Positions 30,136 through 60,206 of a DNA stretch of 64,000 nt are shown here, piece after piece; within the stretch, counting starts at the first letter, position 1, and every line of letters starts with the position of its first letter. Under the pieces are notes generated by a model. It saw only the letters and a program-made list of their open reading frames with translations. It did no database searches and was not told the origin of the DNA. The position numbers and the translations under genes were made by a program. The stretch comes from a virus. Where the stretch lies: positions 1-64,000 of the IMG/VR virus record IMGVR_UViG_3300025138_000014; one strand, 5' to 3'.

Positions 30136-30138
30136 ATA
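30131..30138 (+). promoter_or_regulatory. T4 late promoter TATAAATA
   Basis: Exact consensus 34 bp upstream of the CHxS-tail gene at 30172. Confidence 0.7.
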
Positions 30139-30171
30139 GAGTAAAAGAACAAGGTATTTACGGAGAACAAC

Positions 30172-30759: not shown

Positions 30760-30762
30760 ATT

Positions 30763-43065: not shown

Positions 43066-46014
43066 ATGGGAAAAAAACTAATACGTGATTATGTGTACGC
43101 ACCAGGTAATGCGGGAGCAGGAACAGTTCAGATACCTGGAACTTACAGTATGGACCAGATACTAATCATTACCAACGTAACAGATAATGTTGTAATCTAC
43201 AATTTTGCTTCAACTGAACATGCAGGTACAACTGTTACAGTAACAAATGCAAATACAGCCGCAGATGGGCATTGGGCCCATATAATGGAAATAGCAAATG
43301 GTTTTACTACTATCACTCTTGCTAAAAGTACAGCAGGGCAATCCGCTTCTGATGCTCTTCAAATATTTGTAGAGGACTCAGAAGGTGATATGGTTGTCAG
43401 ACCGTATAACTTTGGTACAGATGCTATTGAACGAATGCGTGTATCTCTTCCAGAGTCAATGATTGACGCAGACTTTGAGTACGGATTGCAGCCTACTAAA
43501 TGGGCTGGTTATGGTACTATTAAAGGTTACCCTTCTGTTTATTCTACCGAAGGCGTTGATCTTGATACTACAGCAGTTACAACTGATTATAATACAGGAT
43601 CATCCACAAACTCATTAATCACAGTTACATTTGGATCAGCTCATGGTTTATCTGTTAATGATGTTGTTAATGTAACTGGCTTAGATTCTGGGGTCCCAGG
43701 TTTCTCAAGAGCAGATGGTTCATTTCTAGTCGAGACAGTTGTTAGCAGTACAGTAATTAAATACTTTGCACGTGGTATTGTTGGCAGCAGTAATAATCAA
43801 TCATTATATACAGAAGAAACTTTAACAAAACTCGGAGGCATTTATGCAGGCGCATCTATCCCAGTTCAAAGTGCATCTTCAAACGGTGCTAACCCTAGTG
43901 TAATTACACTAACTTTTGCTAATCCACACGGACTTATCCCTGGTACAAATATTCATACATCAGTTGCGTCTGGTACTAACAAAGAGGAAGCCTCAGGGCC
44001 TTTCTTTATTAAATCGGTACCAACAGAGACAACATTTACATATACTGCACGAGGGGGTGCAGTAGTCGGCAGTCCAGCAACTGTTACACTCTTTGCTCTT
44101 TCTAATGCTACAATTCTTCACAGACCTGCTGATGGCGGAGTTATTCTACAAACAAAAACACCAACATATGCAGCTTCGGTTGTTCGTGTTAGTAAACGAT
44201 ATTTCAGGTATCAGTCTGGTAAGGGATTCCTATTCTCAACTGGTACATTAATGAAACCTAACTATGATATTAGAAGCATTTCAGCTGCTGGTACAGGCGT
44301 AGGACAATTAATTACTATCGGTACAGATGAGATTGATCACGGTCTACAACCCGGTGCTAAAGTTAGATTAGAAGGAATTGAAACTTCTGGATATGAAAAT
44401 ACTTATACGGTAAATTCTATTATAGATGATTACACATATACAGTTGCTGCTCTTGGAACTTTAGGATCTACAAACCCGGTACTCAAAAGAGTATGTACAA
44501 TGTATGTTACTGAGTGGCGTGGAGCAGCTGTTCGTGCAGGTATGTTTGATGATGTTAACGGAATTTTCTATGAGTTTGACGGAAAACAATTCTATGTTTG
44601 TAAAAGAAATTCAACTCAACAGATTTCTGGTACATTAGGAGTTACTGCTAACGGAAGTGCAGTTACAGGAGCCAATACTAGACTTACTGAACAATGTAAA
44701 GCTGGAGATAGAATTTCAATTCGTGGTATGATTCACTTCATTACTAAAGTTGCTTCAGATACTTCAATGTTTGTTACACCAGATTATCGTGGTATCACAG
44801 CCAGCGGTATCAAGGGAAGTATTGTTATTGACCACAAAGTTCCTCAATCACGCTGGAACATTGATAGAATGGATGGAACAGGTATTCACAATCCATCATT
44901 GCACACCCTTGATCTTAATAAAATGCAAATGGTTGGATTCCAATATTCATGGTATGGTGCTGGTTTCATTGACTTTATGATCCGTGGTCACGATGGCAAT
45001 TGGTGTTACATTCATAGAATGAAAAATAACAACATTAATAATGAAGCATTTATGAGGTCTGGTAACCTTCCAGTGAGATACTCTATTGAGAATGACTCAC
45101 CTGTTTCAAACCTAACTGCTTCGATTAACTCATCAGTCACGACTATTCCAATTGCAGAAATTAATGAGTTTGATGATACTGGTATTATTATGGTAGACAA
45201 CGAGATTATCTCATACACTGGAAGATCTGCTACAACTGGTCCAGCTAACTTTACAGGTTGTACAAGATCAGCTACTCTGACTCAATATCAACAAGGTAGT
45301 ACAAATAATCTTACTGCCGGAGCTGCAGCAAGTCACACAAATAAAACAGGTGTTATTGAGATTTCAAATACTTGTTCTCCAACACTATCACACTGGGGAT
45401 CTGCCCTAGTTATTGATGGAGACTTTGACTTTGATCGTGGTTATATCTTTAATTACTCAAACTCACATAACACTAATTCAGACCAGATTGTTACAACTCC
45501 AATTACATCGTTTGTAATTAGACTTGCGCCTTCGGTATCTAACTCATCAGTGGGTAGACTTGGAGCCAAGGACCTTCTCAATAGATCGCAGTTACTTCTT
45601 AAAGAATGTGCTGTTGTGTGTGGGCGTGGTTCATCATCATCCGGTGAGGTTCATATTCAAGGTATTATTAATCCTAAGAACTTCTCAGATGCTACATGGA
45701 AAGGTCTATCAGGATCTGCAGAAGGTGGTCAACCTAGTTTTGCTGAAGTTGCTAATAAAAATGATATTACATGGAGTAGTGGTTCATATGCGCAACCAGG
45801 AGAAAGAGTTTTCTCATTCGTTGCTGGTACAAGTAGACAAGACTCAGTTGTTACTACTGCTGATATTGATCAGCTTAAAGAATTATCAGGTGCTCCTCTA
45901 GGAGGAGATTATCAGTTCCCAGATGGGCCAGATGTTCTAGCAGTTAATGCATTCTGTTTATCAGGTGATGTTAAAGCGTCTATCCAGCTTCGCTGGTCTG
46001 AAGCACAAGCATAA
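43066..46014 (+). CDS. large virion structural protein (982 aa)
   Basis: 'RMRVS.PESMIDADFEYGLQPTKW', repeated 'IT.T....HGL..G' beta units, 'RYFRYQSGKG', 'YSWYGAG'. Confidence 0.75.
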   Translation: MGKKLIRDYVYAPGNAGAGTVQIPGTYSMDQILIITNVTDNVVIYNFASTEHAGTTVTVTNANTAADGHWAHIMEIANGFTTITLAKSTAGQSASDALQIFVEDSEGDMVVRPYNFGTDAIERMRVSLPESMIDADFEYGLQPTKWAGYGTIKGYPSVYSTEGVDLDTTAVTTDYNTGSSTNSLITVTFGSAHGLSVNDVVNVTGLDSGVPGFSRADGSFLVETVVSSTVIKYFARGIVGSSNNQSLYTEETLTKLGGIYAGASIPVQSASSNGANPSVITLTFANPHGLIPGTNIHTSVASGTNKEEASGPFFIKSVPTETTFTYTARGGAVVGSPATVTLFALSNATILHRPADGGVILQTKTPTYAASVVRVSKRYFRYQSGKGFLFSTGTLMKPNYDIRSISAAGTGVGQLITIGTDEIDHGLQPGAKVRLEGIETSGYENTYTVNSIIDDYTYTVAALGTLGSTNPVLKRVCTMYVTEWRGAAVRAGMFDDVNGIFYEFDGKQFYVCKRNSTQQISGTLGVTANGSAVTGANTRLTEQCKAGDRISIRGMIHFITKVASDTSMFVTPDYRGITASGIKGSIVIDHKVPQSRWNIDRMDGTGIHNPSLHTLDLNKMQMVGFQYSWYGAGFIDFMIRGHDGNWCYIHRMKNNNINNEAFMRSGNLPVRYSIENDSPVSNLTASINSSVTTIPIAEINEFDDTGIIMVDNEIISYTGRSATTGPANFTGCTRSATLTQYQQGSTNNLTAGAAASHTNKTGVIEISNTCSPTLSHWGSALVIDGDFDFDRGYIFNYSNSHNTNSDQIVTTPITSFVIRLAPSVSNSSVGRLGAKDLLNRSQLLLKECAVVCGRGSSSSGEVHIQGIINPKNFSDATWKGLSGSAEGGQPSFAEVANKNDITWSSGSYAQPGERVFSFVAGTSRQDSVVTTADIDQLKELSGAPLGGDYQFPDGPDVLAVNAFCLSGDVKASIQLRWSEAQA

Positions 46015-46026
46015 GAAAGAAAAGAA

Positions 46027-48123
46027 ATGGTAACTAAACTCAGTACACATCTAAATACAAGCCTAGGTAATGTTGTACAAGGTGTAGACTCAGAAGATGT
46101 AATTACACTAATCGGCACCACAAAAGTAGCTGTTGACTCAGGTACTATTGGTAACTTTATTGCAACCATTTCACCAACTTCACCAAACCCTGGCATTGTT
46201 ATTACAGGATCTGGTTCAAACAGTGCAGCGGCTTTTCTAAGGTTAGATTCAGCCGTTGCAGTAACGAAAACTGGTACACAAACATTAACAAATAAAACAA
46301 TTAACCTTACTGCTAATACTTTGACTGGAACTGCAGCTCAATTTAATGCAGCTATGAGTAATGGTTCATTTGCTACTATCGGTGGAACAGAAACTTTAAC
46401 AGATAAAACTTTAACAAGTCCAGTAATTAACTCTGCAACAATTAATAATGGTACAGCAAATAATCTAGCAACACTTAGTTTAAGAGATGCTACAACTAAT
46501 ACTAAAAAACTTATAGTAACATCCAATGCCGCAAGCCCAGTTTTATCGGCTGATAGAACACTAACACTTGATGTTAACAATGCAGATAGAACATTATCAC
46601 TAATGGGTAATGTTACATTAGGCGGAGCATTAACTACATCAGGCGCTCACGCAACAACATTTACTACAGGCGGAACAACCGCACTTACTTTGCCAACATC
46701 TGGTACAGTTGTTACAAAAGATTCAGCTGGTGGAACAATCTCAGCTAACTATTTTATTGGTAATGGTGCACAGTTAACAGGTGTTGCTTCAGGCGATATC
46801 GTAGCTGATACTACTCCACAATTAGGAGGAGATTTAGATGCAAACGGAAACAATATTCTATTAGACAATGCTACAAAAATTAGTTTTGGTTCAGACACAC
46901 TTCAAGTAAAAACTGATGGAAGTAGTAATAGTATTATTCAAGGTTCCAGTACAACATACCTCAGAGGCAGTAGTGTTAATATCGGATCAAATGGCGGCAG
47001 TGGAGGATATCCAAATACAATACTTGTAACTGGAAACACAAGTACAAGTCACGTTGAAATGCTTTATGGCACAAGTAAAAAGTTTGAAACAACCAGTACA
47101 GGTGTTACAGTAACAGGTAATATAACTGTATCTGGTACAGTTGATGGTGTAGATGTTCTAACAATTGGTAATAAAGTAAATGGTATTGAAGCATCAGCTG
47201 ATGTTACAGATGCTACTAATGTTGGAACATCTCTTACAGCATTTAGCACATCAACAGATGATGCGCCAGGAGATTTAATTCCAGTCTATGATGTTTCAGC
47301 TAGTGCTTGGAAAAAGATGACTATTGCTAATGCGGCTCTTGGTGGAGCCCAAGGTAACAAAGGTCAAAAAGGTGAAGTAGGTGGAGACGGTGGAGCGGGT
47401 AGTAAAGGACAAAAAGGTGAAGTCGGCGGAGACGGTGGAGCGGGTAGTAAAGGCCAAAAAGGCGAAGTAGGTGGCACAGGTGGAGCAGGTGGAGCGGGTA
47501 GTAAAGGACAAAAAGGTGAAGTAGGAACATTTGGTGGCGGAAACATCACAATAACCAACCAAGCAATTTTATCTAATGCGTCATCTAACTGGACAGGTGA
47601 TCCAGGCACCCAAGGTAAAATTCAGTACCACTCAAATAGATGGTATATTGTTTCAGACCAATCTTCAGACAGAATTGTTCAGTTTAGAAGAAATGGAACA
47701 GATGTGTCATATGTAGATAACTCAGGTGTGTATCAGGGTACAGCAACGTCAGCAAATTGGTCTGACTTAGCGGAGAAATATAAAGCAGATGCAGTTTATG
47801 AAGCAGGTGATTTAGTAGGTATCGGCGGAGCTGAAGAGATTACTAAATACACTAAAGATATGCCATTTGCTGGAGTTATATCGGAAAAACCTGGCGTGAG
47901 AATGAATTGCAATGAAGAAAATATGGATGATCCACTATGGCCATATGTTTGTTTAAAAGGTCGTGTTCCAGTTAAGATTAATGGAACAGCAATTAAAGGC
48001 GATTATATTATTACAGACGATAATGGAAAAGCAAAGTCTAGCAAAGTTAAGCCAGATGATTTAAGTCTGCTTATCGGCATTGCTCTTGAAGATGGGACAG
48101 ACGAGGTAGAGGTTAAAATTTAA
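46027..48123 (+). CDS. tail fibre with collagen-like tract and C-terminal chaperone/autocleavage-like domain
   Basis: 'TLTNKT' repeats, 'DTTPQLGGDLD', Gly-X-Y tract, C-terminal 'WSDLAEKY...CLKGRVPV.....KGD...IGIALE'. Confidence 0.82.
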   Translation: MVTKLSTHLNTSLGNVVQGVDSEDVITLIGTTKVAVDSGTIGNFIATISPTSPNPGIVITGSGSNSAAAFLRLDSAVAVTKTGTQTLTNKTINLTANTLTGTAAQFNAAMSNGSFATIGGTETLTDKTLTSPVINSATINNGTANNLATLSLRDATTNTKKLIVTSNAASPVLSADRTLTLDVNNADRTLSLMGNVTLGGALTTSGAHATTFTTGGTTALTLPTSGTVVTKDSAGGTISANYFIGNGAQLTGVASGDIVADTTPQLGGDLDANGNNILLDNATKISFGSDTLQVKTDGSSNSIIQGSSTTYLRGSSVNIGSNGGSGGYPNTILVTGNTSTSHVEMLYGTSKKFETTSTGVTVTGNITVSGTVDGVDVLTIGNKVNGIEASADVTDATNVGTSLTAFSTSTDDAPGDLIPVYDVSASAWKKMTIANAALGGAQGNKGQKGEVGGDGGAGSKGQKGEVGGDGGAGSKGQKGEVGGTGGAGGAGSKGQKGEVGTFGGGNITITNQAILSNASSNWTGDPGTQGKIQYHSNRWYIVSDQSSDRIVQFRRNGTDVSYVDNSGVYQGTATSANWSDLAEKYKADAVYEAGDLVGIGGAEEITKYTKDMPFAGVISEKPGVRMNCNEENMDDPLWPYVCLKGRVPVKINGTAIKGDYIITDDNGKAKSSKVKPDDLSLLIGIALEDGTDEVEVKI
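47344..47541 (+). repeat. collagen-like Gly-X-Y tract, about 22 triplets, built from imperfect 45-bp tandem units
   Basis: GAQ GNK GQK GEV GGD GGA GSK GQK GEV GGD GGA GSK GQK GEV GGT GGA GGA GSK GQK GEV GTF GGG. Confidence 0.92.
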
Positions 48124-48510
48124 ATGCCCGATTATAATACACTAGATGCTTCACTACAAGCAAAAGCGGGTGGGGCACTGAGAACTTTTGATAAAACTAT
48201 GACTTTTACTGTAACTGCATATGTATTACAATCAGTTACTACTACTCAAGCAGGCCCTACAAGCACACTTGGCGTTACTCAAAGATTTGAATTTACAGGT
48301 GCTGCCGATTCACTTTACGACGATTATCTTGACTCTGGTATTTACACTGGGGCACGTATATATTCTCAAGATGTTATTGACTCAATTTCTAATACAATAC
48401 AAAGAACTGTAGATCAGATAGAAAGTCGAATCACTGATAGATCAATCTCAGCTTTAATTTGCCACAATAGTTGTCATACTAGCTGCCATACTTCAAGAGG
48501 GCGCAGATAA
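48124..48510 (+). CDS. CHxS-repeat-tailed protein B1 (128 aa), putative radical SAM substrate/precursor
   Basis: Ends CHNSCHTSCHTSRGRR*; starts immediately after fibre stop (TAAATG). Confidence 0.85.
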   Translation: MPDYNTLDASLQAKAGGALRTFDKTMTFTVTAYVLQSVTTTQAGPTSTLGVTQRFEFTGAADSLYDDYLDSGIYTGARIYSQDVIDSISNTIQRTVDQIESRITDRSISALICHNSCHTSCHTSRGRR

Positions 48511-48896
48511 TGGGAAATATGACGAGAGACAGTGTCGACTCTTATATCCAAACTTATTCTGGAGCGAAGTTAAGAACATTTGACAAAACTATTACTATAA
48601 CAACTACAGCATATCAGAATAACAATCCCACTGCTATGGGTGGAACAGGTACTAATACTACGACACATAGGTTTGAATATACAGGTGCTGCCGATTCACT
48701 ATTCGATAACTATATTGATGGAGGTATCGCAGTGGGCCAAAGAGTTTATGCGCAAGATATTGTAGACACTTTAGAGGATGCAGTACAAAGAACAGTTGAT
48801 TTGATTGAAAGTCGAATTGATAACAGATCTATCAGCGCAGCGTTATGTCACAGTAGTTGTCATACAAGCTGTCACACATCGAGAGGAAGACGCTAA
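48510..48896 (+). CDS. CHxS-repeat-tailed protein B2 (128 aa), tandem paralog of B1
   Basis: Ends CHSSCHTSCHTSRGRR*; shares 'LRTFDKT', 'RFE.TGAADSL.D.Y.D.GI', 'QRTVD.IESRI..RSISA' with B1. Confidence 0.85.
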   Translation: MGNMTRDSVDSYIQTYSGAKLRTFDKTITITTTAYQNNNPTAMGGTGTNTTTHRFEYTGAADSLFDNYIDGGIAVGQRVYAQDIVDTLEDAVQRTVDLIESRIDNRSISAALCHSSCHTSCHTSRGRR

Positions 48897-50080
48897 TGGC
48901 GATGCAAGAATCATATTGTAAGCAAATGAGATATTCTGGACCAGAAAGTCTAGCACCATCAGATGCTACAAAGTTTGATGTTTTAATTCAAATGGAAGTA
49001 TTAGCTGGATGTGAGCAAGGATGTTTAGGTTGTTTTGTAGATAAGGCTATTGATCCAAAAAGTAATCAGCAAATTATTGATCGTGCTAAAGAACTGGCAG
49101 ATGGTGTAAAAAGAACTGGTCTTAATTTAAGAGAATTTGTTATAGGACCAACGGATCTGTTTTCTGCTAAAAACACTAAAGAAGTATTGGAGAATAAAGT
49201 TGTCCAAGAAATTATGCGAGAACATACAGGCGCTAGAATTGCATCCCCTGCAAAATTTGATAAAGCGCCTATGGAAAAAGTTAGAGAAATATTTGATATC
49301 CTAGATGATGAGAATAAATTCCGTCGTGATATGATTATTGAGTTTATTATGCCTATTGGCCGTATTAACGAGATGTTAGATGACGAGGACTATTATAAGT
49401 CTGTTATGGAAAAAGTTGACTTTTTTAAGAACGATACTCCTAAGATGATGGATTGGTCTTGGACTTTACAGGCTTCAAATGTAGTCGGTAAACAAATAGA
49501 CAAAGAAAAATACAACAGACTTATTAAAAGATCAGTTGAAGATTTTGGTACTATCATGGAAATGAACCCAGCGTTCTCCCGTGCACCAAATCAGATAATT
49601 CAAAGAAAAAATCTATTCGGTTGGAATAAATTCCTTAGTTCTGTTATTGATGAAGATAATGCTAAAGAGACAGTAATGTCCATGGCTAATTTATATTGTA
49701 ATTCAATAAACTTTATTGGTATTACTATTGTACCCGGAGAAAATGGACCGACTACACATCTTAATGTTATGCTTCACGAGCAAGCATTTTTCTTATCAAA
49801 TAAAAATCTTGATGTTACTGGACTTACATTTGAAGAAATTCTACAACGTAAACACGAGTTGGTTACAAAAGGTATAAATAAATCAAGTAAGGTAAAAGAT
49901 TGTCAAGACTGCCAGTTCGCTATGGCTTGTGCAAATAGATTAGTATTTGAGGCTCAAGAGTCAATGAATATTAATGGTTGTGTTTTACCAAAAGAAACAT
50001 TAGAGCATTATAATCCATTCGACTTTACATGGAATGACGATGCAGAAAAATATAATATGAAAAACGGAGCAAGAGCATGA
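48896..50080 (+). CDS. divergent radical SAM enzyme (IGPTD type)
   Basis: Likely start ATG 48896 (TAATG coupling); 'GCEQGCLGCFV', 'IGPTD', C-terminal 'CQDCQFAMAC...GC'. Confidence 0.85.
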   Translation: MAMQESYCKQMRYSGPESLAPSDATKFDVLIQMEVLAGCEQGCLGCFVDKAIDPKSNQQIIDRAKELADGVKRTGLNLREFVIGPTDLFSAKNTKEVLENKVVQEIMREHTGARIASPAKFDKAPMEKVREIFDILDDENKFRRDMIIEFIMPIGRINEMLDDEDYYKSVMEKVDFFKNDTPKMMDWSWTLQASNVVGKQIDKEKYNRLIKRSVEDFGTIMEMNPAFSRAPNQIIQRKNLFGWNKFLSSVIDEDNAKETVMSMANLYCNSINFIGITIVPGENGPTTHLNVMLHEQAFFLSNKNLDVTGLTFEEILQRKHELVTKGINKSSKVKDCQDCQFAMACANRLVFEAQESMNINGCVLPKETLEHYNPFDFTWNDDAEKYNMKNGARA

Positions 50081-51183
50081 TTGGTCAAAATCTATACTAT
50101 CTTAACAGTTCAAAATATGTGAGTAATACGAGCAATCTTGGAACAGTAATCGGTGAATTAAACTCATACTACCACACCAAAACTCCTAGAAATATAGTTA
50201 TTGTTCATATGCAAAATGGTGCACAACATATAGCCGGAGCGCATGAACACATTGCCAATGAAATTAGAGCAGGTGCTGCAGATTTAATTAGCTATAAGAC
50301 TTGGGACGAAGTTGACAATATTGATTATATTCAGAATAGTGAAAAAGCAATTATTCTGTTTGCTACAGTTGAAGATATGATAACAGTCTTGGTAAGATAT
50401 ACAGCTGGGCTTATAAAAGCGTCAGGTTTCTATCCAGCAGATTCAGACTTCCAAGCCATAACCAGTGCATTTGTAAATAAGATATTTGATGTTGACTTAA
50501 TGTTTACATATATTAATAATCACGAAATTGTTGCTGATATTCCTGGTCACTTAACTTCTTTTTGGGCAGGCGATACTAGACCAGCAGGTAGAAACACTCC
50601 TTATGAAGTAATTTTCCAGAATGGTAAAAACTTCAGCTATGATCTTTTGTTTTTCTTAAATGATTATTATAGATGTAGCGGAGTCCAAGGTTTAATTAAA
50701 GAGAAATTTACAGTTCATCAATCTACTATGGCACAAGATGTTATGGAACACTTTACATCACGTCGGCACTATATGGCTTATATTTTATCAGTCATTGATT
50801 GGATGAATGCAAATGTGTCACGTAACTCTCAATATGCTACAGATAAGAAACCATGGATTGTTGATGCTTATATCACTAAAGCCAATTCTGGCAACTATAC
50901 AGCTGCTTTTTATAAGCTGGAAGAGTTATGGAACCTAGTCAAAGATGATACGGCATTTATTGCAGCACACCAAGACAAAGCTGATTCGGATGCTACTGGT
51001 TGGGAATATATGGATTTATATACAGAATTTAAAAATGTATTTCCCATTGTCAGAAAAGTTTTACAGAATGATTTTGATATGAATAATCTTACTATGGAAT
51101 TAAGGCTTATTAATACAGACGTTCAGTTTTTCTCAAAAAGACAAAACAGGATCCCATACTTAATTCACAAATACCCTTTATAG
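50077..51183 (+). CDS. hypothetical protein (368 aa)
   Basis: Coupled ORF (ATGA); possibly distant paralog of 31421..32569. Confidence 0.75.
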   Translation: MIGQNLYYLNSSKYVSNTSNLGTVIGELNSYYHTKTPRNIVIVHMQNGAQHIAGAHEHIANEIRAGAADLISYKTWDEVDNIDYIQNSEKAIILFATVEDMITVLVRYTAGLIKASGFYPADSDFQAITSAFVNKIFDVDLMFTYINNHEIVADIPGHLTSFWAGDTRPAGRNTPYEVIFQNGKNFSYDLLFFLNDYYRCSGVQGLIKEKFTVHQSTMAQDVMEHFTSRRHYMAYILSVIDWMNANVSRNSQYATDKKPWIVDAYITKANSGNYTAAFYKLEELWNLVKDDTAFIAAHQDKADSDATGWEYMDLYTEFKNVFPIVRKVLQNDFDMNNLTMELRLINTDVQFFSKRQNRIPYLIHKYPL

Positions 51184-51197
51184 GATTATAATATATC

Positions 51198-51962
51198 ATG
51201 AATGAAAAAACAGACATTGAAGCTAAGTGCTATGTGCTACCATTAGCACCTCAAGACTTAGTGGGAATTTACAAGCATAAAGAAACTGTTGAAGATTTTA
51301 CTTTATGGGTAGATTATTTAATATCTAAAGAAAAGCTATCAGCAAAACACATAATTATATATTTGGCTAATACTAATTTTAGAGCATCATTTGCGCAAAT
51401 TGATGATGATCTTATTCGTGAGTATATTAAATCAGATTTCATGGTAGATTGCCCTTTACTTGCAAGGATAGTTGTTCTAATAGTTAAACATTATTATAGA
51501 CATGAACCAAATGAACAAGAGCGTGAATTGTATAGTATATTCTCACCTTCAAATATTAATATTTTTATCAGAGATAATAACGATCTAGTCAAAGAGTTAG
51601 TTCGTACTATAGCAAGTGCTATACCATTTGTATTAAATAAATTTTATGATGGTCTTGACGAAGAGGGTAAAGAAAAAGAAATTAATATAAGAGAATTTGT
51701 AAACGATATTACTATAGCAGATAAACCATCTAATTGCGGTCCGAATATTGCTAGATTGCTCACAGTAGGTTTTGATGCATTCTTACTTATTATTCAAAAA
51801 GAAGGCTTGTCTATGGAATACAATAAGCAAGTTTATAACGATGCTCCTAAATTTCTGGGAAAAGATTTATATTTTATTTTCTGTAACACTAAAATTACAG
51901 ATCATATTATGGATTTCTTTCCTGACGACTGGATAAAATCATATGATAGTACATCTGAATGA
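51198..51962 (+). CDS. hypothetical protein (254 aa), paralog of 30763..31437
   Basis: Shared motifs as noted for 30763. Confidence 0.75.
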   Translation: MNEKTDIEAKCYVLPLAPQDLVGIYKHKETVEDFTLWVDYLISKEKLSAKHIIIYLANTNFRASFAQIDDDLIREYIKSDFMVDCPLLARIVVLIVKHYYRHEPNEQERELYSIFSPSNINIFIRDNNDLVKELVRTIASAIPFVLNKFYDGLDEEGKEKEINIREFVNDITIADKPSNCGPNIARLLTVGFDAFLLIIQKEGLSMEYNKQVYNDAPKFLGKDLYFIFCNTKITDHIMDFFPDDWIKSYDSTSE

Positions 51963-52965
51963 TACATATGCTGGATACTGGAATTTCAAAAAAGATAAAT
52001 CTCCAGTAAATCAGGCATTTTTAAGAACAGAGATCAACCTTGACATTCTTCACGGCTGTAGCCAGATGTGTCCAGGCTGTTTTATTCCCAGAAAAAACTT
52101 AACTGATCCAAATGGAATGATAGAACTTCATAAGTTGCTTATCAATGGGCAATTTTATCCAGATGAAATCACTATTGGTCCAACTGATATATTTGATGCA
52201 GAAAATTTTGATGAAGTTATGAGACATCCTGGGCTCAAACTTCTTTATGAAATATCAGGTGTCGGATATACAACTACTTTACTACAACATGAAGAAGTTG
52301 TAAAGAGAAAACTTGCTATGATCTGGGATATTTATCAGCACATACATAGAATGCCAGATATGGATTTCAAAATTGTATTTGATATTGACAAATATCTTGA
52401 TGGAGAACTAGATGATTGGTATAAAAAATTAGAGTTATTCAATCTAGGTTCCGTTCAATTTAGGGTAAACTACCATAAAGGTGTGTTTGATAGAATTGGA
52501 TATAATGAGTTATGTAAAAGAGTTAAAGAGGATTTTAATACTCCGATTATTATTACTCCAAGTTTCTTAACTGATAGAAATGTAAGAGGAAAGGTTGATC
52601 AACATCTTGCTTCATTTAGACAAGAGTTATTAGATCAGAAAATAGATAGAGAATGGCTTCAGTATTATACATTCTTTGACGCCGAGTTTAATGGACTTGG
52701 TTGCCAGAACTATTCTTTTTATAATGGAAAGCTATATACAAATCCATTTTTATATGATAATATAATCCAGAGAACACCTAAGTTTGAAACAACTATGGAT
52801 GAAAATACCCTGTTTGATAATATAGATTATGCTCAACAGGTAGATGACTGTAATGGGTGTGAATATATGATGAGTTGTGCAGAGCGCAATATTCACTTAT
52901 ATATGGAGTCACGTAATTTGGAATCATGCGTTGCTCTTAAAGAGTATATGTATGCCCCTCATTAA
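51943..52965 (+). CDS. divergent radical SAM enzyme (IGPTD type)
   Basis: 'GCSQMCPGCFI', 'IGPTD', 'CNGCEYMMSC...C'. Confidence 0.85.
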   Translation: MIVHLNDTYAGYWNFKKDKSPVNQAFLRTEINLDILHGCSQMCPGCFIPRKNLTDPNGMIELHKLLINGQFYPDEITIGPTDIFDAENFDEVMRHPGLKLLYEISGVGYTTTLLQHEEVVKRKLAMIWDIYQHIHRMPDMDFKIVFDIDKYLDGELDDWYKKLELFNLGSVQFRVNYHKGVFDRIGYNELCKRVKEDFNTPIIITPSFLTDRNVRGKVDQHLASFRQELLDQKIDREWLQYYTFFDAEFNGLGCQNYSFYNGKLYTNPFLYDNIIQRTPKFETTMDENTLFDNIDYAQQVDDCNGCEYMMSCAERNIHLYMESRNLESCVALKEYMYAPH

Positions 52966-54115
52966 AAATAATCTATTCTATGAATTAACTACAGAGACAC
53001 AAACCAAACCAGTATCAGCCGTAAAACTTCAGCTTGATGTATTAGACGGATGCCATCATAAGTGTCCGGGTTGTTTTGTTCACAGACGTGGTAATTCTAG
53101 TAATAAACATCAGTTAAGTGATGCTAAAAAATTCATAAGAAGTATAACAGACCAGGGTATTCTAGTTGATGAAATGCTTATTGGTCCTACAGATTTTCTT
53201 GCTTCAGAAAATTTCTATGAAGTTATGCCAGATCTGTTAGATATAATTAATGAAAATTCTCCTATTCTTGCATTTGTTTCAACTCTTATTGATGGAGACT
53301 TGAAGCGATGGACTCAATATATTACAGATAATATTAATATCAATACTGAAATAGAAATTGGTATTGCTACAAATCCTGCAAAGTTTTATGAAGAAGGCTA
53401 TAGACAACTGATTCAAGATAAGTTAGATTATATAGATAAGAATTTGGAACACGAGGTAACTTATACTTTTGTTGTAAATATTAGAGATTATGGTATTGAC
53501 TATGAAAAATTACATAACCATTCTGTCGTTTGTTTTAAAACGGTTTTAGACTTTGTTCCGTCTGTTAGTAGGTCACATAAGAATTACCTCATATTAAAGA
53601 TTTTAGATAAATTTAACGTGTTTTTTAATGAGCTAAGTGCTTATAAAGAAAGCAAAATAAATAACATTATGGTAGACCATTCACACGGTGGTCTGAATTA
53701 TACTGTTTTAAACTACAAGACAGGCAAGTGGTATTTAAGTCCTTTTATGTATGAGAACATGGCTATCTATGATGATATGTTTCATATAGATAATTTCAAT
53801 GATGTTACTGCTATTGTGGAGAAACAGATACAAAGAGCAAAAGGAACTGAGTGCGAAGATTGCCCTCTATTCTTTAGTTGCTATAATAGAAAAATTATAT
53901 TACTCAGAGATTATCTTGGCGTTGATAGATGTATTGCACCTAAAGAAAACATGATGGCACATATACATAACTACAACGGTCCTGCTCAGACTATGTATGA
54001 CTGGGATGGTTATTCAGTTGAGAACGATAAAAACGGATATAGAAAAAAGTTTTTAGTGACTCAAGAGAATGACCCAGAATTAGAACGACTCAGAGAAATA
54101 TCCTATGTTAAATAA
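52952..54115 (+). CDS. divergent radical SAM enzyme (IGPTD type)
   Basis: Likely start ATG 52952 (MPLIKNN); 'GCHHKCPGCFV', 'IGPTD', 'CEDCPLFFSC...C'. Confidence 0.85.
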   Translation: MPLIKNNLFYELTTETQTKPVSAVKLQLDVLDGCHHKCPGCFVHRRGNSSNKHQLSDAKKFIRSITDQGILVDEMLIGPTDFLASENFYEVMPDLLDIINENSPILAFVSTLIDGDLKRWTQYITDNININTEIEIGIATNPAKFYEEGYRQLIQDKLDYIDKNLEHEVTYTFVVNIRDYGIDYEKLHNHSVVCFKTVLDFVPSVSRSHKNYLILKILDKFNVFFNELSAYKESKINNIMVDHSHGGLNYTVLNYKTGKWYLSPFMYENMAIYDDMFHIDNFNDVTAIVEKQIQRAKGTECEDCPLFFSCYNRKIILLRDYLGVDRCIAPKENMMAHIHNYNGPAQTMYDWDGYSVENDKNGYRKKFLVTQENDPELERLREISYVK

Positions 54116-55241
54116 CGATTGGGCAGACATTGTAAATAACGGCAAAATGTTAGAAGAATATTCTGCAATTAGCCAAATGAAACAATACAAGATTCAAGTA
54201 ACTCTTGAGCTGCTTGAAGGCTGTTCTTATCTTTGCCCGGGTTGTTTTGTAAAACGTAGGGGTAATTGGCATCCAAAATCAATAGCATTATTTCATAGTT
54301 TAGCATATGAACTTAAAGATAGAACTGATATTGTTCTTGATGATATTGTTATCGGACCTACAGATTTCTATGGCGCAGAAAACTTAGAAGAAATACTTGA
54401 TGATCCTAGATTGGCTGATGCTATTCTTATGATGCCTGAGGATAATAGAAACATACAACATAACTGTTCTATTTTAGGTTCTCTATCTGAAAAAGATATT
54501 GAGAGTAAAATTAAGAAAGTTGAAAATTCTAGGCTGGGAGCTGTAGTTAAATGTTGGGATGTGCAAATTGCACTAGATTTAAATAGGTTACTTAACGATG
54601 ATGATTATAGACAAGCACTTGAAAATAGAGTAAAGATGTTTGAAGATAGTTCACTAGAATTTGAAATATCAATGGCAACTAACATTGTAAATAATATTGA
54701 AAGTATATTATTTGAAGCCATAAATTACACTAGAGAAAAATATTCTACAGTTATAGAAATACTTCCATCTGTAGTTAGGTCATTAAGTGCTAATAGCAAA
54801 CATGCCGTGAAACTATTTAAGTGGAACTCCATGCTTGATACTTTTGCCAAAGAGCCGGATTTTAAAAATAAGTTTCATTTCCTACAAGGAGATATATCTC
54901 ATAAGACTTTTCAATATGCAGTTGTTAATATACATTTTGGAAAGTTTTATGCTTCACCATTTATTTATGAAAATGCTCAGATTTATAAAGAATCATTTGA
55001 AATTAAAATTAATGATTCTATCCATGAATCTATACTAGCACATAAAGATGCAATTGTAAACAAACAAATAGAAAGTAGTGCAAATAAAGAGTGTGGTTCT
55101 TGTAAATATTTAACCATATGTTCTCATAGAATGATTCCACAAGTAATGGACACATTTTTTAAAGACCGATATGAGTGCATATTAAATAAAGATGTAATAA
55201 GTATCTGGGATTATGAGGTGTATCGTGGGAATAGTTATTAA
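54105..55241 (+). CDS. divergent radical SAM enzyme (IGPTD type)
   Basis: 'GCSYLCPGCFV', 'IGPTD', 'CGSCKYLTIC...C'. Confidence 0.85.
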   Translation: MLNNDWADIVNNGKMLEEYSAISQMKQYKIQVTLELLEGCSYLCPGCFVKRRGNWHPKSIALFHSLAYELKDRTDIVLDDIVIGPTDFYGAENLEEILDDPRLADAILMMPEDNRNIQHNCSILGSLSEKDIESKIKKVENSRLGAVVKCWDVQIALDLNRLLNDDDYRQALENRVKMFEDSSLEFEISMATNIVNNIESILFEAINYTREKYSTVIEILPSVVRSLSANSKHAVKLFKWNSMLDTFAKEPDFKNKFHFLQGDISHKTFQYAVVNIHFGKFYASPFIYENAQIYKESFEIKINDSIHESILAHKDAIVNKQIESSANKECGSCKYLTICSHRMIPQVMDTFFKDRYECILNKDVISIWDYEVYRGNSY

Positions 55242-56241
55242 CAATAAAAGAGCTGCCCAAGCAGATGCAGACTTTGATGTAAGTTTAGGTCAAGGACATG
55301 AAATAAAAGTCCAGTTCAATTGTGAGATATTATCTGGCTGTGAGTTTAAATGTAAAGGATGTTTTGTTAATAAATTAGGCAACAATGTTGGGTCATTTGA
55401 TAGGTTAAACAATGCCATTGATCTGTTTAGCGCAAATGGATATAGAGTATCAACAATTAATATCGGACCCACAGATTTATTCGGTAATAATAATGTTATT
55501 GAGTTATTGAAAGATGAAACCTTTCGTGAATGTTTAAGCAAAGTTTCTACTATACAATTCGTCACGACCCTAATAAACATTTCGTCAGAAGTAATTGATT
55601 TACTTAACAGCATACCTAAAATAGATGGGTTTATGTATGATGCAAACATAGCTTTACAACCACCAGTAAATTGGGATATGATAGAGGAACGGCTAAAACT
55701 ACTCAACGGTTTTACCGATGATCTAAATTATTATATGGTTTATAATATGGGTAATGATGACGAGTACAATAATAAAGTATTAGAAATGTCTGATATTGTA
55801 GATGATAGATTTGATTCTATTCTTACATTAAATCCATCATTCTTTAGAGCGCCAAAAAGTAAAGTACAAACACATCTAATTGAGAAGTGGAAAAATTATG
55901 ACTTTTCACCTGACTTATATCCAAAGACAATTATTGATAAATCGCAAGGTGGAAGTCTTGAACTAAATTACACATACTGTAATGGTAGGTTTTTCTGGAC
56001 TCCATTTGTATATGATATTGCTATGATCGGAACTAAGGAGTTTGAAGTCAAAGATGAGAACGATATTGAATCTTGGACTGAAGCTAAATCATTTCAATTT
56101 ATGAAACAATTAACGTATTCTAGTGAAACGGAAAACTGTGGTTCTTGCGGTAACATGATGACTTGTATAGACAAAGGGGTTCTAAGTTATATGGAACATC
56201 ATTCAATTAAATCTTGTGTCTTTCCTGGAGTCTTTTCATAA
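55213..56241 (+). CDS. divergent radical SAM enzyme (IGPTD type)
   Basis: 'GCEFKCKGCFV', 'IGPTD', 'CGSCGNMMTC...C'. Confidence 0.85.
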   Translation: MRCIVGIVINNKRAAQADADFDVSLGQGHEIKVQFNCEILSGCEFKCKGCFVNKLGNNVGSFDRLNNAIDLFSANGYRVSTINIGPTDLFGNNNVIELLKDETFRECLSKVSTIQFVTTLINISSEVIDLLNSIPKIDGFMYDANIALQPPVNWDMIEERLKLLNGFTDDLNYYMVYNMGNDDEYNNKVLEMSDIVDDRFDSILTLNPSFFRAPKSKVQTHLIEKWKNYDFSPDLYPKTIIDKSQGGSLELNYTYCNGRFFWTPFVYDIAMIGTKEFEVKDENDIESWTEAKSFQFMKQLTYSSETENCGSCGNMMTCIDKGVLSYMEHHSIKSCVFPGVFS

Positions 56242-57323
56242 TCAAATCCTGTTATAAGATTTTGACCAGTTTTATCCATGTAATTAAACCACATTCTCAT
56301 AATACAATCTGGTAAATCTCTCTCACGATTTTTCCAGTCCCATTGTGTATAGCATCTAAATCCACACTTGTTGTACCACTTACATGATAAGCAACCATTT
56401 TCATCCATATAAGCCTGCATCATGCCAGTATTATCTTTACGCTCAAACTTTGTATTAAAGTCCCTTTGATCGTATCTATCCCATCTACAATTAGATGTAG
56501 AATTATCTGGAAATATGGTAACTTTATTCAGAGCCAAACAGTGCATGTGATTAGACTCATTATAGATTAGATCCTTAATAGGGTTAATATCAGGATAGTT
56601 GTGATATACAAACTTTAGAAACTCCAGATATTTACTATCGGACGGAATCATATAATCATATCCACGGTCTGGAATATAATCGTCAAAATAGAAGTTGTCA
56701 AATTTATCATACAGATAATGAAAATACTCATCATCATCTGCCATGAACTTTTCTATACTGAGAGTAGTTGCTACCATATTAATTGAAGTAATATAATCAG
56801 CAAAATATTCAATGTTCTTTGCGTAGGGACCTTTTGTTGGTCTCCCGTCAAAGTCATAAGAGCAAATAATAAAGCTAGGTATATCAATAGCATTTAAATC
56901 ATCTAATAACTTTTTTAGTCTTTCTCTTTTACTAAATTGAAAAGAAGTAACCCACACAATTTTTATTGTTTGATCATGCTCGTCATAAATCTTTTTAACA
57001 GCTACTAGGAAATCATAATAATATGGATAAAACTCTTCCGATATTCTATCTTGAAATAATTCTCCTCCAAGCATATTGATCTGAATAATATCAGCACGAC
57101 CTTTCATCTTTATAACGTGTTCTTCAACCAATTCAAGCTTTGAAAATATACCCTCACGAGATAGTCCAACTTCAGACTTTTTATCATGGTGGCAGAACGA
57201 GCAGTTGAGATGACAATTCTCAAATAGAGTCATCTCAATCTCTGCTATATCAGGCCGTTTAGCCTCAAGCAAAGTTCTTGTAAAATCATATTCTGGGTTC
57301 GACTGAACCTTAGAGTTGATCAA
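56199..57323 (-). CDS. radical SAM/SPASM-like enzyme, paralog of 32570
   Basis: 'LFENCHLNCSFC', 'MLGGELFQD', 'CLSCKWYNKCGFRC...C'. Confidence 0.9.
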   Translation of the reverse strand: MINSKVQSNPEYDFTRTLLEAKRPDIAEIEMTLFENCHLNCSFCHHDKKSEVGLSREGIFSKLELVEEHVIKMKGRADIIQINMLGGELFQDRISEEFYPYYYDFLVAVKKIYDEHDQTIKIVWVTSFQFSKRERLKKLLDDLNAIDIPSFIICSYDFDGRPTKGPYAKNIEYFADYITSINMVATTLSIEKFMADDDEYFHYLYDKFDNFYFDDYIPDRGYDYMIPSDSKYLEFLKFVYHNYPDINPIKDLIYNESNHMHCLALNKVTIFPDNSTSNCRWDRYDQRDFNTKFERKDNTGMMQAYMDENGCLSCKWYNKCGFRCYTQWDWKNRERDLPDCIMRMWFNYMDKTGQNLITGFDYEKTPGKTQDLIE

Positions 57324-57717
57324 ACATCATTTCCTCTTCATAGTATTTCCTTATATCTGGAACCATTCCTCTGCTTTCATCCCAATCTTCAAGTACAATA
57401 TCTAGGATAGCATGATAAACATCTGGATCGGTAGTATATCTTTTAAAGTATGGATCGTTATTAAAAAGTAAATCTACATCATCTAGTGCGGCAAAGAAGT
57501 CTTCGTTAAAATCTTCGGAGATCCATTTAGCATAACAGATAGCCACGGCATATGATTTTGCTGGATAAAGCCAAATATCCACTTTCTCATAAAAGTGCAT
57601 GATTGCATTATTAATAATTTCTTCATCAATAACAATATCAACTTTGTTTAGATCATCTTCATGTTCTGTTACCATATGGTGAAATGCTTTTTGTCTTACT
57701 TTCCATTCCTGCATCAC
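57310..57717 (-). CDS. hypothetical protein (135 aa, acidic)
   Basis: Coupled ORF between two radical SAM genes. Confidence 0.75.
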   Translation of the reverse strand: MMQEWKVRQKAFHHMVTEHEDDLNKVDIVIDEEIINNAIMHFYEKVDIWLYPAKSYAVAICYAKWISEDFNEDFFAALDDVDLLFNNDPYFKRYTTDPDVYHAILDIVLEDWDESRGMVPDIRKYYEEEMMFDQL

Positions 57718-58769
57718 GCAACTCCTTCTAAATACATTTGCGATTCATCAACATAAGGTGTAATAGCATTTTCACTCATACCATTCATCTTTAATATTTG
57801 AGGTGCTAGTCCTTTCATCTGTTTACAATGTGCTTCAACAGTCTTTTCTCTTTTCATGTCACGTACTGTCTTTTTACAACCATTACATATTTCAAACATA
57901 GGACAACTAAAGCAAGACATTTTCATAGACTGAATATTTGGATCATGCTGTAACGGAGTTTGCATTTTTCCATTCATCTCTTCCTCAAAGTTGATTGGAT
58001 AATCCATATCATCTGCAAAAGAGCCACATGAATAATAATCTCCACCTGGATTAAATGCTCTAATTCCTTCATCACATTTTCTATTTTGCGGACAAGTTGT
58101 AGCACTTCCACCCAGCCGTCTTACCAACTGCTTTGTATTATATTCCCATTCGGTAAGACCTTGGTTATACACGTCAACGTAAATGGCATACATCTTACTT
58201 AATCTGTAAGTACTGCCTTGAACTCCAGAAGCCATAGCATAATTTAATTTACATTCGACATTCATTTCTTTAGCCAGCTTCACATTATCAATAGCACGAT
58301 AATCACTCATATCAGTCATAACGGAAATAAAGTCTGCTCTTTCACCGCAATACTTCAACATAGCATCTTGGCATCTCCAAAAGTCCTCTACAGTAAATTC
58401 GGTAAAATCACCTTTTAATCTACCACCACCAAATTGGAAAGATGTAGCAATACCCATTCGTTCGTGATTAAATAGATCAACCCACTTTTGTGGCTTCATT
58501 AAGAATGGCCATAAGTTTGTAGTGAAACTGATACTGGCTTTATAGTCATGTTCATCTAAGTGATCAATTAGATCCCAATAATATTTGGGCTTGACCATAA
58601 GTGGATCGCCACCATTAATAATTAAAGTATTGGTTTCTGGGTATCTTTTAAGGAATCTGTAGATATAATCTAAATCTAGTAACCCGGCTTTATCTGGGTC
58701 AATAGCGGTAGATGAACAGAATGAGCATTTAAAGTTACACGCTTCTGTAGGTTTAATAATTAGATCCAT
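57714..58769 (-). CDS. radical SAM/SPASM-domain enzyme
   Basis: 'KPTEACNFKCSFC', 'NGGDPL', 'CP....C...YSC...CFSCPMFEICNGC...C'. Confidence 0.92.
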   Translation of the reverse strand: MDLIIKPTEACNFKCSFCSSTAIDPDKAGLLDLDYIYRFLKRYPETNTLIINGGDPLMVKPKYYWDLIDHLDEHDYKASISFTTNLWPFLMKPQKWVDLFNHERMGIATSFQFGGGRLKGDFTEFTVEDFWRCQDAMLKYCGERADFISVMTDMSDYRAIDNVKLAKEMNVECKLNYAMASGVQGSTYRLSKMYAIYVDVYNQGLTEWEYNTKQLVRRLGGSATTCPQNRKCDEGIRAFNPGGDYYSCGSFADDMDYPINFEEEMNGKMQTPLQHDPNIQSMKMSCFSCPMFEICNGCKKTVRDMKREKTVEAHCKQMKGLAPQILKMNGMSENAITPYVDESQMYLEGVA

Positions 58770-59791
58770 TGCTTTTCTTCCGCTAGAGTCATCATCAAGG
58801 TTTTAGGTGCAGGACAGACATCATCCATCCAATAGAGTTGGTGACAATCAGATTTACAATATAAGAAAACTGGGCACTTATAACATCTCTCATCTCTATC
58901 GTTTATTTCTTCACTTATTGTGCACATTCGTGCAGGATTTAATTTTACTACCTCTGCTGGAGTATTTATAGTATCGTAATGTTTTGTTGGTGCAGTATTT
59001 GGACAACCCGCTACTGTTCCATCAGCATTAATAGTAAAAATTTTCTGCTCACAGTCACGACAAAAAGTACCAATACTAAATTGCCCATGTGAAAATTTCT
59101 TATAAACTGAGTCTAAAAATCCATTAAAGACATTATGATCTTTAGTTGTTTTGTGCATCTTCATCCACCAAGCATCTAATTCTCTATTATGTGGAAAAAT
59201 ATCAGTATTAATTTTAGCATTACCATCGTGGGTTAATCTCTCATAACTAATTTCATCAATGCCTATTGATTCCATATAGTCCGCTATCCATAGAGGTTCT
59301 AGTTTTAGAATGTCCTTAGATACCGAAATAAAACATTTCATTCTGTGACCACGAGAAGCTAAAAACTTTACATTGTTTTCCCATAGTTCTCTTTGTTTTT
59401 CATTAGAAAATCTAATATTTGGATCCCAGCTGGTTCCAATACTTCCGCCATCAATACATTCTTCAAGGAATGATAATCTTGCTTCATTTAATTTAAAAAC
59501 TAGATTGCTAGTTATTCCATGGGTACAACGGTCTCCCCATTGATCTTTAGTTATCCGATGAAATTCACGTAAATGATCCATTGGTGCAAGAAGAGGTTCT
59601 CCACCGTGATATTCTAAATGAATTTGATTTGTTCCGTTATCTAATTGATTGACCCAGTTAGCAGTCTTTATATGGTCAAAATAAATCTTTCTACCATTCT
59701 TACCGCTAGTGAAGCAATGGAAACAATTAAGATTGCAGGTTTCCGTTGTCTTCACATACACGCAAGTAAATTTTTGTGTCACTAATGCCAT
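58760..59791 (-). CDS. radical SAM/SPASM-domain enzyme, paralog of 29116
   Basis: 'KTTETCNLNCFHCFTSG', 'YHGGEP', 'GTSWD', 'CRDC..GCPN..CYKCPVFLYCKSDC..C'. Confidence 0.92.
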   Translation of the reverse strand: MALVTQKFTCVYVKTTETCNLNCFHCFTSGKNGRKIYFDHIKTANWVNQLDNGTNQIHLEYHGGEPLLAPMDHLREFHRITKDQWGDRCTHGITSNLVFKLNEARLSFLEECIDGGSIGTSWDPNIRFSNEKQRELWENNVKFLASRGHRMKCFISVSKDILKLEPLWIADYMESIGIDEISYERLTHDGNAKINTDIFPHNRELDAWWMKMHKTTKDHNVFNGFLDSVYKKFSHGQFSIGTFCRDCEQKIFTINADGTVAGCPNTAPTKHYDTINTPAEVVKLNPARMCTISEEINDRDERCYKCPVFLYCKSDCHQLYWMDDVCPAPKTLMMTLAEEKQWI

Positions 59792-60206
59792 AACTGAATA
59801 TCAATGCTTCCTGAGTGTTTAATGCACGATGTTTTGTGCCTTTTGGTATTTCTACTTGTTCACCTGGATTTAGTAACTTTGTAGAACCTTCAATTTCTAA
59901 TATTTTATTACCATCGCAGCAATATATTACTACATCTACTGGATCTGTATGTTCTTCAAAAGATGGACCATCAATAGGATTATAAAATATATGCATCGTG
60001 CCTTCATTATAATCAACAATCTTTTCATACATCTCAATTTTTAATGTATTCTTTTCTGCGATTAAAGCCGAAATTTTACCATAATATACCCAATAGTTAT
60101 CTTGTTCAACATACTGTATTCTGTGTTCACTATCTATAACCGAAACATTACAAACATTGAAGCACTGTTCGGAGAGAATAAACTCAAAGAACTGTTCAAA
60201 ATTCAT
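59727..60206 (-). CDS. cupin/JmjC-like protein
   Basis: 'SFEEHTDPVDV', 'G.K', 'L.PGE...IPKGTKHRA'. Confidence 0.75.
   Translation of the reverse strand: MNFEQFFEFILSEQCFNVCNVSVIDSEHRIQYVEQDNYWVYYGKISALIAEKNTLKIEMYEKIVDYNEGTMHIFYNPIDGPSFEEHTDPVDVVIYCCDGNKILEIEGSTKLLNPGEQVEIPKGTKHRALNTQEALIFSYGISDTKIYLRVCEDNGNLQS

Follow-up and report, generated by a model that had tools for sequence, protein, structure and literature searches.

What would a phage do with five related proteins that resemble radical S-adenosylmethionine (SAM) enzymes but carry neither of the motifs, CX3CXφC (with φ an aromatic residue) and GGE, by which such enzymes are mostly recognised? The question is raised by positions 48896–56241 (+ strand) of a 64-kb stretch of viral DNA, the first part of the 151-kb IMG/VR record IMGVR_UViG_3300025138_000014, from an uncultured marine T4-like phage. 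This stretch (to be referred to as the window) also contains T4-type structural genes, for example that of the T4 neck protein at 63577. Our conclusion, to which we give a probability of about 0.6, is that the five proteins are working radical SAM enzymes of one distinct family, and that they serve as accessory, specialised maturases, probably of a Cys-His tail at the C-terminus of proteins encoded immediately upstream.

The five genes are mutual homologs, with 21–29% sequence identity: paralog 1 (48896–50080), paralog 2 (51943–52965), paralog 3 (52952–54115), paralog 4 (54105–55241), and paralog 5 (55213–56241), all on the + strand. With paralog 5 as query, the entire 151-kb record yields just these five places (E values of 1e-13 to 1e-20, 25–29% identity), and no sixth copy of the family. 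A first-pass annotation of the window had described five homologous open reading frames (ORFs) with the motifs GCxxxCxGCF, IGPTD, and a C-terminal Cx2Cx5C...C. The ORFs exist as described, and the motif columns are invariant. In the five-way alignment, these are L36, G38, C39, C43, G45, C46, and F47 in the cluster loop (LxGCxxxCxGCF), I83, G84, P85, T86, and D87 in the GGE region (IGPTD), and C336, C339, C345, and C362 in the tail. The loop and tail read GCEQGCLGCF and CQDCQFAMAC...C in paralog 1, GCSQMCPGCF and CNGCEYMMSC...C in paralog 2, GCHHKCPGCF and CEDCPLFFSC...C in paralog 3, GCSYLCPGCF and CGSCKYLTIC...C in paralog 4, and GCEFKCKGCF and CGSCGNMMTC...C in paralog 5, and all five have IGPTD. 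In an alignment of 136 family sequences, for which the numbering differs from that of the five-way alignment, C43, C47, and C50 are invariant, and G49, P86, T87, D88, N94, R212, C309, C312, C318, and C335 are at least 90% conserved.

The cluster loop of the family differs from CX3CXφC in that the residue before the third Cys is Gly (127 of 137 family sequences), and an aromatic residue instead follows the third Cys, as in NrdG. At the end of β2, (I/L/V)GPTD is found in place of GGE, and [ILV]GPTD predominates across the family. In the six canonical radical SAM enzymes of the window, the third Cys is preceded by Phe or His and GG(E/D) is present, which agrees with the contrast drawn in the first-pass annotation. 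In enzymes of known structure, GGE sets the orientation of the SAM amino and carboxyl groups, and the adenine base is contacted both by φ and by the residue that follows the third Cys (PMC6231123). In SkfB, the residue following the third Cys likewise contacts the adenine (PMC6231123). An hhalign comparison between the family and the six canonical enzymes of the window (probability 87%) sets I-G-P-T-D on N-G-G-D-P, with G85-P86-T87-D88 placed on G-G-(D/E)-P. On this alignment, the Gly of the family would correspond to the first Gly of GGE, Thr would replace the Glu or Asp, and the acidic residue would be displaced by one position. P-T-D is the sole constant part of the motif across the wider family, including a sister clade from Bdellovibrionota.

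The seven-Cys SPASM motif, CX9-15GX4C-gap-CX2CX5CX3C-gap-C, by which two clusters are bound, is also not present in full. Only Cx2Cx5C...C is conserved, with an Arg near the Cx3C position, and these cysteines align with the Cx2Cx5C(x3C)...C of the SPASM paralogs. In anSME, the second auxiliary cluster (Aux II) is bound by C317, C320, C326, and C348 (Cx2Cx5C...C), and Aux I uses other cysteines (PMC5715301); none of the Aux I cysteine positions of anSME is conserved in the 136-sequence alignment. The family has a single auxiliary Cys4 set, whose spacing and alignment match the Aux II ligands. The twitch domain is a truncated SPASM domain with the Aux I cluster (PMC6231123). By comparison, the C-terminal domain of the family would be a half-SPASM in which the Aux II-type half is kept, as judged from spacing and alignment. 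Such a reduced tail is found in all five paralogs, as had been reported, but it is not unique to them: a canonical enzyme of the window (37187–38089) also has only Cx2Cx5C...C. A phmmer search of the Protein Data Bank (PDB) with another canonical enzyme (57714–58769) reached only the N-terminus of MoaA, and gave no residue map onto anSME.

The predicted fold is that of a radical SAM enzyme. The AlphaFold2 model of paralog 5, calculated from the 136-sequence alignment, has a mean predicted local distance difference test score (pLDDT) of 92.1 and a predicted template modelling score (pTM) of 0.91; an earlier model from the alignment of the five paralogs only had a pLDDT of 49 and was unusable. 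The model contains six β-α units, a β-hairpin, and C-terminal helices. The top 19 fold matches found by VIA-align are all radical SAM enzymes. The best match is anSME, with a Z score of 14.0 (283 residues aligned, root-mean-square deviation 4.3, 11% identity), followed by ChlB (13.5), TigE (12.8), CteB (12.2), SuiB and SkfB (both 11.9), MoaA (11.0), and PqqE (10.9). The Z score for pyruvate formate-lyase (PFL) activase is 7.6. Foldseek agrees with these assignments, with probabilities of 1.0 and E values of about 1e-6 for SuiB and CteB. The model thus points to a radical SAM fold of the SPASM/twitch type, without an N-terminal RiPP recognition element (RRE) or other peptide-recognition domain (RiPP, ribosomally synthesised and post-translationally modified peptide). 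The lack of a TIM-barrel fold, which was one way in which the initial assignment could have failed, is not what the model shows: it has the partial barrel of the radical SAM enzymes.

Curated sequence models hardly reach the family. The Pfam matches, to Fer4_12 and Radical_SAM, are all sub-threshold; the best score for PF04055 is 18.8 bits (threshold 29.5) in one paralog, and the other four have no PF04055 match. The NCBIfam matches are limited to weak ones for NrdG or SPASM. The NrdG model TIGR02491 scores 9.5–19.5 bits, with a cut-off of 126, and a SPASM match (TIGR04085) is found in paralog 4 alone, with 17.2 bits and a cut-off of 27. Paralog 3 has sub-threshold matches to both Radical_SAM and NrdG. 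No paralog matches the HxsB and HxsC models (TIGR03978 and TIGR03977) at E≤1, and the canonical neighbours do match them, weakly. All five paralogs match PHROG phrog_31457 (E values from 3.5e-5 to 2.2e-10), which has no assigned function. Against PDB sequences, the family profile gives nothing beyond a marginal match (E 0.012), in the cluster loop of GDGT-MAS.

Scored against 1.84 billion representatives, a profile built from the five paralogs recovers no more than 212 clusters at E≤1e-3, and 182 of these have E≤1e-10. There is thus no gradual transition from the family to the remainder of the superfamily, and the survey bears out a discrete family without a Pfam or NCBIfam model. None of 97 homologs from a set of 5.8 billion proteins has a precomputed Pfam domain or an informative name. 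No match was found among cultured phages with megablast of the region or with tblastn of a tailed protein, and no paper on the family or its cassette was found in the literature, although a T4-like marine viral genome has been described in which 12 radical SAM genes were counted and not analysed (PMC5332604). These observations support a distinct, uncharacterised radical SAM subfamily with a conserved replacement of GGE. The first-pass annotation had proposed a new subfamily; the distinct and conserved GGE replacement upholds this, but Gly before the third Cys is not new, being present in T4 NrdG (GCLHKCEGCY).

Could these proteins have kept the fold and the cluster and given up catalysis? They might then be scaffolds or substrate presenters, cluster-binding subunits that are non- or partly catalytic and form hetero-oligomers with each other or with canonical radical SAM enzymes. 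The first-pass annotation had considered that some of the paralogs are such subunits. Both the GGE motif and the aromatic residue have been replaced, the genes are translationally coupled, as would suit stoichiometric complexes, and the paralogs have no recognition domain of their own and always have canonical enzymes close by. HxsC of the HXS system, moreover, acts in a complex with a partner protein (PMC13128918). The conservation pattern, however, is that of an active site. The three radical SAM cysteines are invariant in the 136 sequences, P-T-D, N94, and R212 are nearly so, and the cluster and motif residues are intact in all five paralogs. NrdG functions with the same CxGC loop, and systems with a single copy, as in the Ralstonia phage RSF1, indicate that a hetero-oligomer of paralogs is not required. 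A non-catalytic role is therefore unlikely.

The evolutionary record of the paralogs is in keeping with this. For a phylogenetic tree, family ORFs were gathered from the window, from two cultured jumbo phages, and from 61 IMG/VR loci as well as bacterial loci, and the resulting 258 sequences were thinned to 80 at 80% identity. Each paralog of the window lies in its own clade, together with positional orthologs from many marine contigs; the support by the Shimodaira–Hasegawa-like approximate likelihood ratio test (SH-aLRT) is 100 for paralogs 1 to 4 and 99 for paralog 5, and the stems measure 0.4–1.1 substitutions per site. The deeper branches are weakly supported, and the Bdellovibrionota sequences are interleaved among them. 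Compared to the orthologs, the rate of nonsynonymous substitution (dN) is 0.09–0.28 and that of synonymous substitution (dS) is saturated; where dN/dS can be estimated it is 0.09–0.18 (0.18 for paralog 2, 0.13 for paralog 3, and 0.09–0.16 for paralog 4). Of the alignment columns that are conserved in the orthogroups, 18 are identical in all five and include every motif residue. Another 15 are conserved inside each orthogroup and differ from one to the next, and several of these are located on β4 and β5. The expansion is old, and each paralog has been maintained separately under purifying selection. No paralog has decayed, which argues against non-catalytic subunits and for separate, non-redundant roles. 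The suggestion that each paralog acts on a different residue or repeat agrees with this age and individual conservation, but the number of copies does not follow the number of tailed proteins (see below).

A second alternative takes the likeness to NrdG literally. The paralogs would be activases that place a stable radical of the glycyl type on a partner, with the Gly of the terminal RGRR, beside a Cys/His metal site, as one conceivable position. The cluster loop, GCxxxCxGC(F/Y/H), is that of NrdG, and the sole matches to sequence families are weak ones to NrdG that cover this loop and the region just after it. These matches amount to 10–20 bits, far below the cut-offs of 126–199 for NrdG-type models, and SPASM-type maturases (Z scores of 12–14) are much closer in structure than PFL activase (7.6). 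The paralogs are also twice the size of NrdG and have an extra cluster domain, and an oxygen-sensitive protein radical would be an improbable device for a phage of the surface ocean. We regard this explanation as highly improbable.

The likely substrates of the preferred maturases are suggested by the arrangement of the genes. Two genes for 128-residue proteins, which are paralogs of each other, stand immediately before paralog 1 on the same strand, at 48124–48510 and 48510–48896. The first protein, with a match to the function-less phrog_35144, ends in CHNSCHTSCHTSRGRR, and the second ends in CHSSCHTSCHTSRGRR; both C-termini follow the pattern CH(N/S)SCHTSCHTSRGRR. The sequence of this tail is invariant across 38 relatives, and dN/dS for the second protein and its ortholog in locus L012 is about 0.11. 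The start of paralog 1 overlaps the stop of the second gene. The order on the + strand is two tailed-protein genes, paralog 1, two ORFs, and paralogs 2 to 5, without gaps, and adjacent genes of the array overlap by 4–29 nucleotides. Large fibre proteins, encoded at 43066–48123, immediately precede the tailed proteins.

The same association is found in relatives. In each of the 53 viral loci whose upstream DNA is long enough, one to three proteins that end in (CHxx)3RGRR are encoded; the 11 loci in which no tailed protein is seen all start no more than about 2 kb from the family array. Among the complete arrays, 29 have five copies and the others have one, two, three, four, or six. Cultured phages with the same module include Ralstonia phages RSL2 and RSF1, Burkholderia phages of the FLC type, and Pseudomonas phage pPa_SNUABM_DT01 (DT01), where it consists of a cupin, a radical SAM protein, the tailed protein, proteins with no assignment, a family member, further radical SAM genes, and 2-oxoglutarate (2OG) oxygenases. 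RSF1 has one family copy and the tail CHSSCHSSCHGSRGRR, and DT01 has two copies and the tail CHTSCHTSCHSARGRR. Among prokaryotic genomes, a DNA pattern for the tail finds 34 loci, mostly in Bdellovibrionota and some of them on contigs of megabase size, and a family member lies within 8 kb in 21 of the 34. The cassette is thus wider than the family, which is often but not always included in it. The restriction of the family to a module with two tailed substrates, as claimed earlier, applies to this genome, but the relatives do not follow it as a rule.

The bacterial loci show variation in both enzyme and tail. On Bdellovibrionota contigs from metagenome-assembled genomes (L075, L079–L082, L084, L093, and L099), the gene of the sister clade immediately precedes that of the tailed protein. 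In this clade the third Cys is preceded by Asn or Ser in place of Gly (CxxxCxNC), GPTD is replaced by LPTD or HPTD (LLPTD, IHPTD), and the Arg corresponding to R212 is missing. In two Bacteriovoracia loci (L091, 864–1433, and L097, 156–764), four or more CHxS units come before RGRR, so that the number of repeats varies. In more distant relatives (L001, 2464–3585; L002, 57–1487; L058, 1464–2867; L060, 3753–4862), the cassette comes after the gene of a putative virion or fibre protein whose C-terminal end, ...NGW..VFPAQW or ...VWPPQWQ, is conserved; this ties the system again to a structural gene. A literature search found no virion proteomics for the tailed protein.

Three further components recur with the family and the tail. 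The first is a set of canonical radical SAM genes, which in the window form a convergent block on the – strand (56199–57323, 57714–58769, and 58760–59791, the last two of the SPASM type). Orthologs of this block are found in the same arrangement in loci L063 and L050, and these genes are core enzymes of the same cassette. The second is a pair of tailoring genes of the cassette, a cupin (59727–60206, – strand; Pfam Cupin_2) and a 2OG-Fe(II) oxygenase (60263–60847, + strand; Pfam 2OG-FeII_Oxy_5), both of which also flank the module in RSF1 and DT01. The third is a family of partner proteins of about 220 residues that are not radical SAM enzymes. The 254-residue protein encoded within the array (51198–51962, + strand) has BLASTP matches to L050_b (E 2e-40) and L060_b (E 3e-11), and L060_b in turn links to the window ORF 30763–31437, RSF1 ORF073, and DT01 gp64. 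Members of this partner family, among them also L001 7935–9008 and L002 3629–4504, are present in every version of the cassette that was examined, and have no Pfam or PHROG match. By analogy with HxsD, they could be substrate-presenting proteins.

A third alternative accepts catalysis and changes the substrate, which would be a protein of the fibre module (43066–48123, or 50077–51962) or a small molecule. In this phage the family lies directly behind collagen-like fibre genes, it is dispensable in many tail-bearing loci, its copy number does not scale with tails or repeats, and nine enzymes for 16 residues would be without precedent. However, the tailed protein is the one gene that always accompanies the family in the 53 viral loci, and it does so also in jumbo phages and Bdellovibrionota, where the adjacent fibre genes differ. 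The closest folds, moreover, are all maturases of peptides or proteins. Another substrate is rather improbable.

For specialised maturases of the Cys-His tail, the following scheme may be proposed. Each paralog would have a partial (β/α)6 barrel with a CxxxCxGC site for a [4Fe-4S] cluster, and the P-T-D motif (IGPTD here) would stand where GGE normally holds the amino group of SAM. A cut-down SPASM domain would keep four cysteines that are equivalent to those of the Aux II cluster only. The five ancient paralogs would belong, as accessories, to a widespread cassette that comprises canonical radical SAM enzymes, a cupin, 2OG oxygenases, the partner of about 220 residues, and a protein that ends in (Cys-His-x-x)3-Arg-Gly-Arg-Arg. 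Each paralog would abstract a hydrogen atom at a different position of the invariant tail, or of the tailed proteins, and thereby introduce a modification of its own, for instance an oxidation or a cross-link. What the analysis establishes is the family with its motifs and fold, the age of the paralogs, purifying selection on them, and their co-occurrence with the tail; we infer that they bind cluster and SAM, which substrate they act on, and how they share the work.

Several points weigh against this scheme. The family copy number (one to six) follows neither the number of tails nor that of repeats: there are loci with two tails and two copies, one tail and three copies, and one tail and five copies. 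Tail-bearing loci without a family member also exist, 13 of the 34 bacterial loci (within 8 kb) and a second module of the window (29116–38089), so that the family is not essential for maturation of the tail and could act elsewhere. The link to the substrate is drawn entirely from gene neighbourhood. Reductive cleavage of SAM to the 5′-deoxyadenosyl radical is uncertain, given the missing GGE motif and the Pfam and NCBIfam scores below their cut-offs. In anSME, Aux II is about 27 Å from the radical SAM cluster (PMC5715301). A lone cluster at the Aux II position, if placed in the same way, would be too distant for the usual electron sink, and the mechanism of anSME or of the sactisynthases cannot simply be transferred.

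A bolder reading is that the family is a new mechanistic branch, in which the P-T-D loop alters how SAM is held, the only auxiliary cluster is a distant one of the Aux II type, and five specialised paralogs (one to six in relatives) rebuild, step by step, the invariant (Cys-His-x-Ser)3-RGRR end of a protein produced along with the fibre genes of the phage. We put this forward tentatively, as less probable than the assignment as maturases in general. If true, a RiPP-like maturation at the protein level would be common to marine T4-like phages, jumbo phages, and predatory Bdellovibrionota.

The module at 29116–38089 is a second cassette, with three canonical radical SAM genes and no member of the atypical family. 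Its 195-residue protein (30172–30759) ends in CHSSCHSSCHGSRGRR, a tail identical to that of RSF1 ORF071, and the T4 late-promoter word TATAAATA is found at 30131. A putative radical SAM protein of 611 residues (33417–35252) has its CxxxCxxC motif in the middle of the chain, and the ORFs 35216–35764 and 36053–36526 had been read as 2OG oxygenases in the first-pass annotation.

Two further ORFs lie among these genes. A 368-residue ORF within the array (50077–51183, + strand) is of unassigned family and has no match in Pfam and PHROG scans, and its ortholog is at the same position in L050. A 135-residue ORF (57310–57717, – strand) lies inside the convergent block. The late-promoter word is not enriched in the window (14 found, 10.7 expected), and the array block has none of its own; the nearest site upstream of 48124 on the + strand is at 42927. 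Late co-expression of the array with the tail-fibre genes is plausible, given the co-directional block behind them, but as there is no TATAAATA site directly upstream of 48124, co-transcription can be no firmer than this. The fibre protein 46027–48123 has collagen-like KGQKGEVGG repeats. Not far from it, 60844–62781 encodes a 645-residue fusion of a GT25 glycosyltransferase, a PLOD-type glycosyltransferase domain (GT_PLOD, Pfam E 1.5e-44), and a 2OG oxygenase domain, which resembles animal collagen-modifying enzymes.

The family is outside every curated model, and current annotation leaves abundant genes of marine phages as "hypothetical". With the fold and the cluster kept and a different conserved loop at the GGE position, it widens the range of what a radical SAM enzyme can look like. 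Five long-separate paralogs beside one invariant tail of 16 residues would amount to an unusually elaborate protein chemistry in a phage, and the occurrence of this kit in predatory bacteria suggests that it may serve in the attack on Gram-negative cells. The system is directly addressable by co-expression and mass spectrometry.

A comparison can be made with four known systems. The best structural match, anSME (PDB 4K36–4K39; TIGR03942), shares the barrel, the Cys-rich C-terminal domain, and the absence of an N-terminal peptide-recognition domain. Its target residue is a Cys or Ser in a folded protein, as would fit a protein tail rich in both. On the other hand, there is no match between anSME and the family at the sequence level; anSME has GGE, the aromatic loop residue, and two auxiliary clusters, whereas the family has only the Aux II-equivalent cysteines, and the target motif of anSME is different from the Cys-His tail. 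The SPASM/twitch maturases of RiPPs (SuiB, CteB, ChlB, TigE, SkfB, PqqE, EpeE) have the same overall fold (Z scores of 10–13.5), and cross-link or epimerise residues in ribosomal peptides encoded nearby. The family differs from them in its lack of an RRE domain, its incomplete seven-Cys motif, and its Aux II-like cysteine pattern. In addition, the candidate substrates here are proteins of 128–360 residues with a putative C-terminal modification, rather than leader-core peptides.

The cluster loop has its closest counterpart in T4 NrdG, where GCLHKCEGCY(N) compares with GCxxxCxGCF in the five paralogs, with Gly before and an aromatic residue after the third Cys. As T4 NrdG is a characterised activase, a working radical SAM enzyme tolerates Gly at this position. 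NrdG keeps GGDP, however, and is a protein of about 150 residues without a C-terminal cluster domain, compared to 340–394 residues, GPTD, and an extra Cys4 domain in the paralogs.

In the HXS antiphage system, the His-x-Ser repeats of HxsA are matured by the radical SAM enzymes HxsB and HxsC together with HxsD, and a site-specific modification of +8 Da maps to an S-H-R-S-S unit (PMC13128918). HXS serves in bacterial defence and has a periplasmic effector. Its repeats contain no Cys and do not end in RGRR, and it includes no expanded family of this kind, no cupin, and no 2OG oxygenases; the paralogs, as mentioned above, miss the HxsB and HxsC models. In its overall design, with a protein (rather than a short peptide) of tandem His-x-Ser units, several radical SAM enzymes, and a small partner, HXS is nonetheless the nearest described analogue of the whole system.

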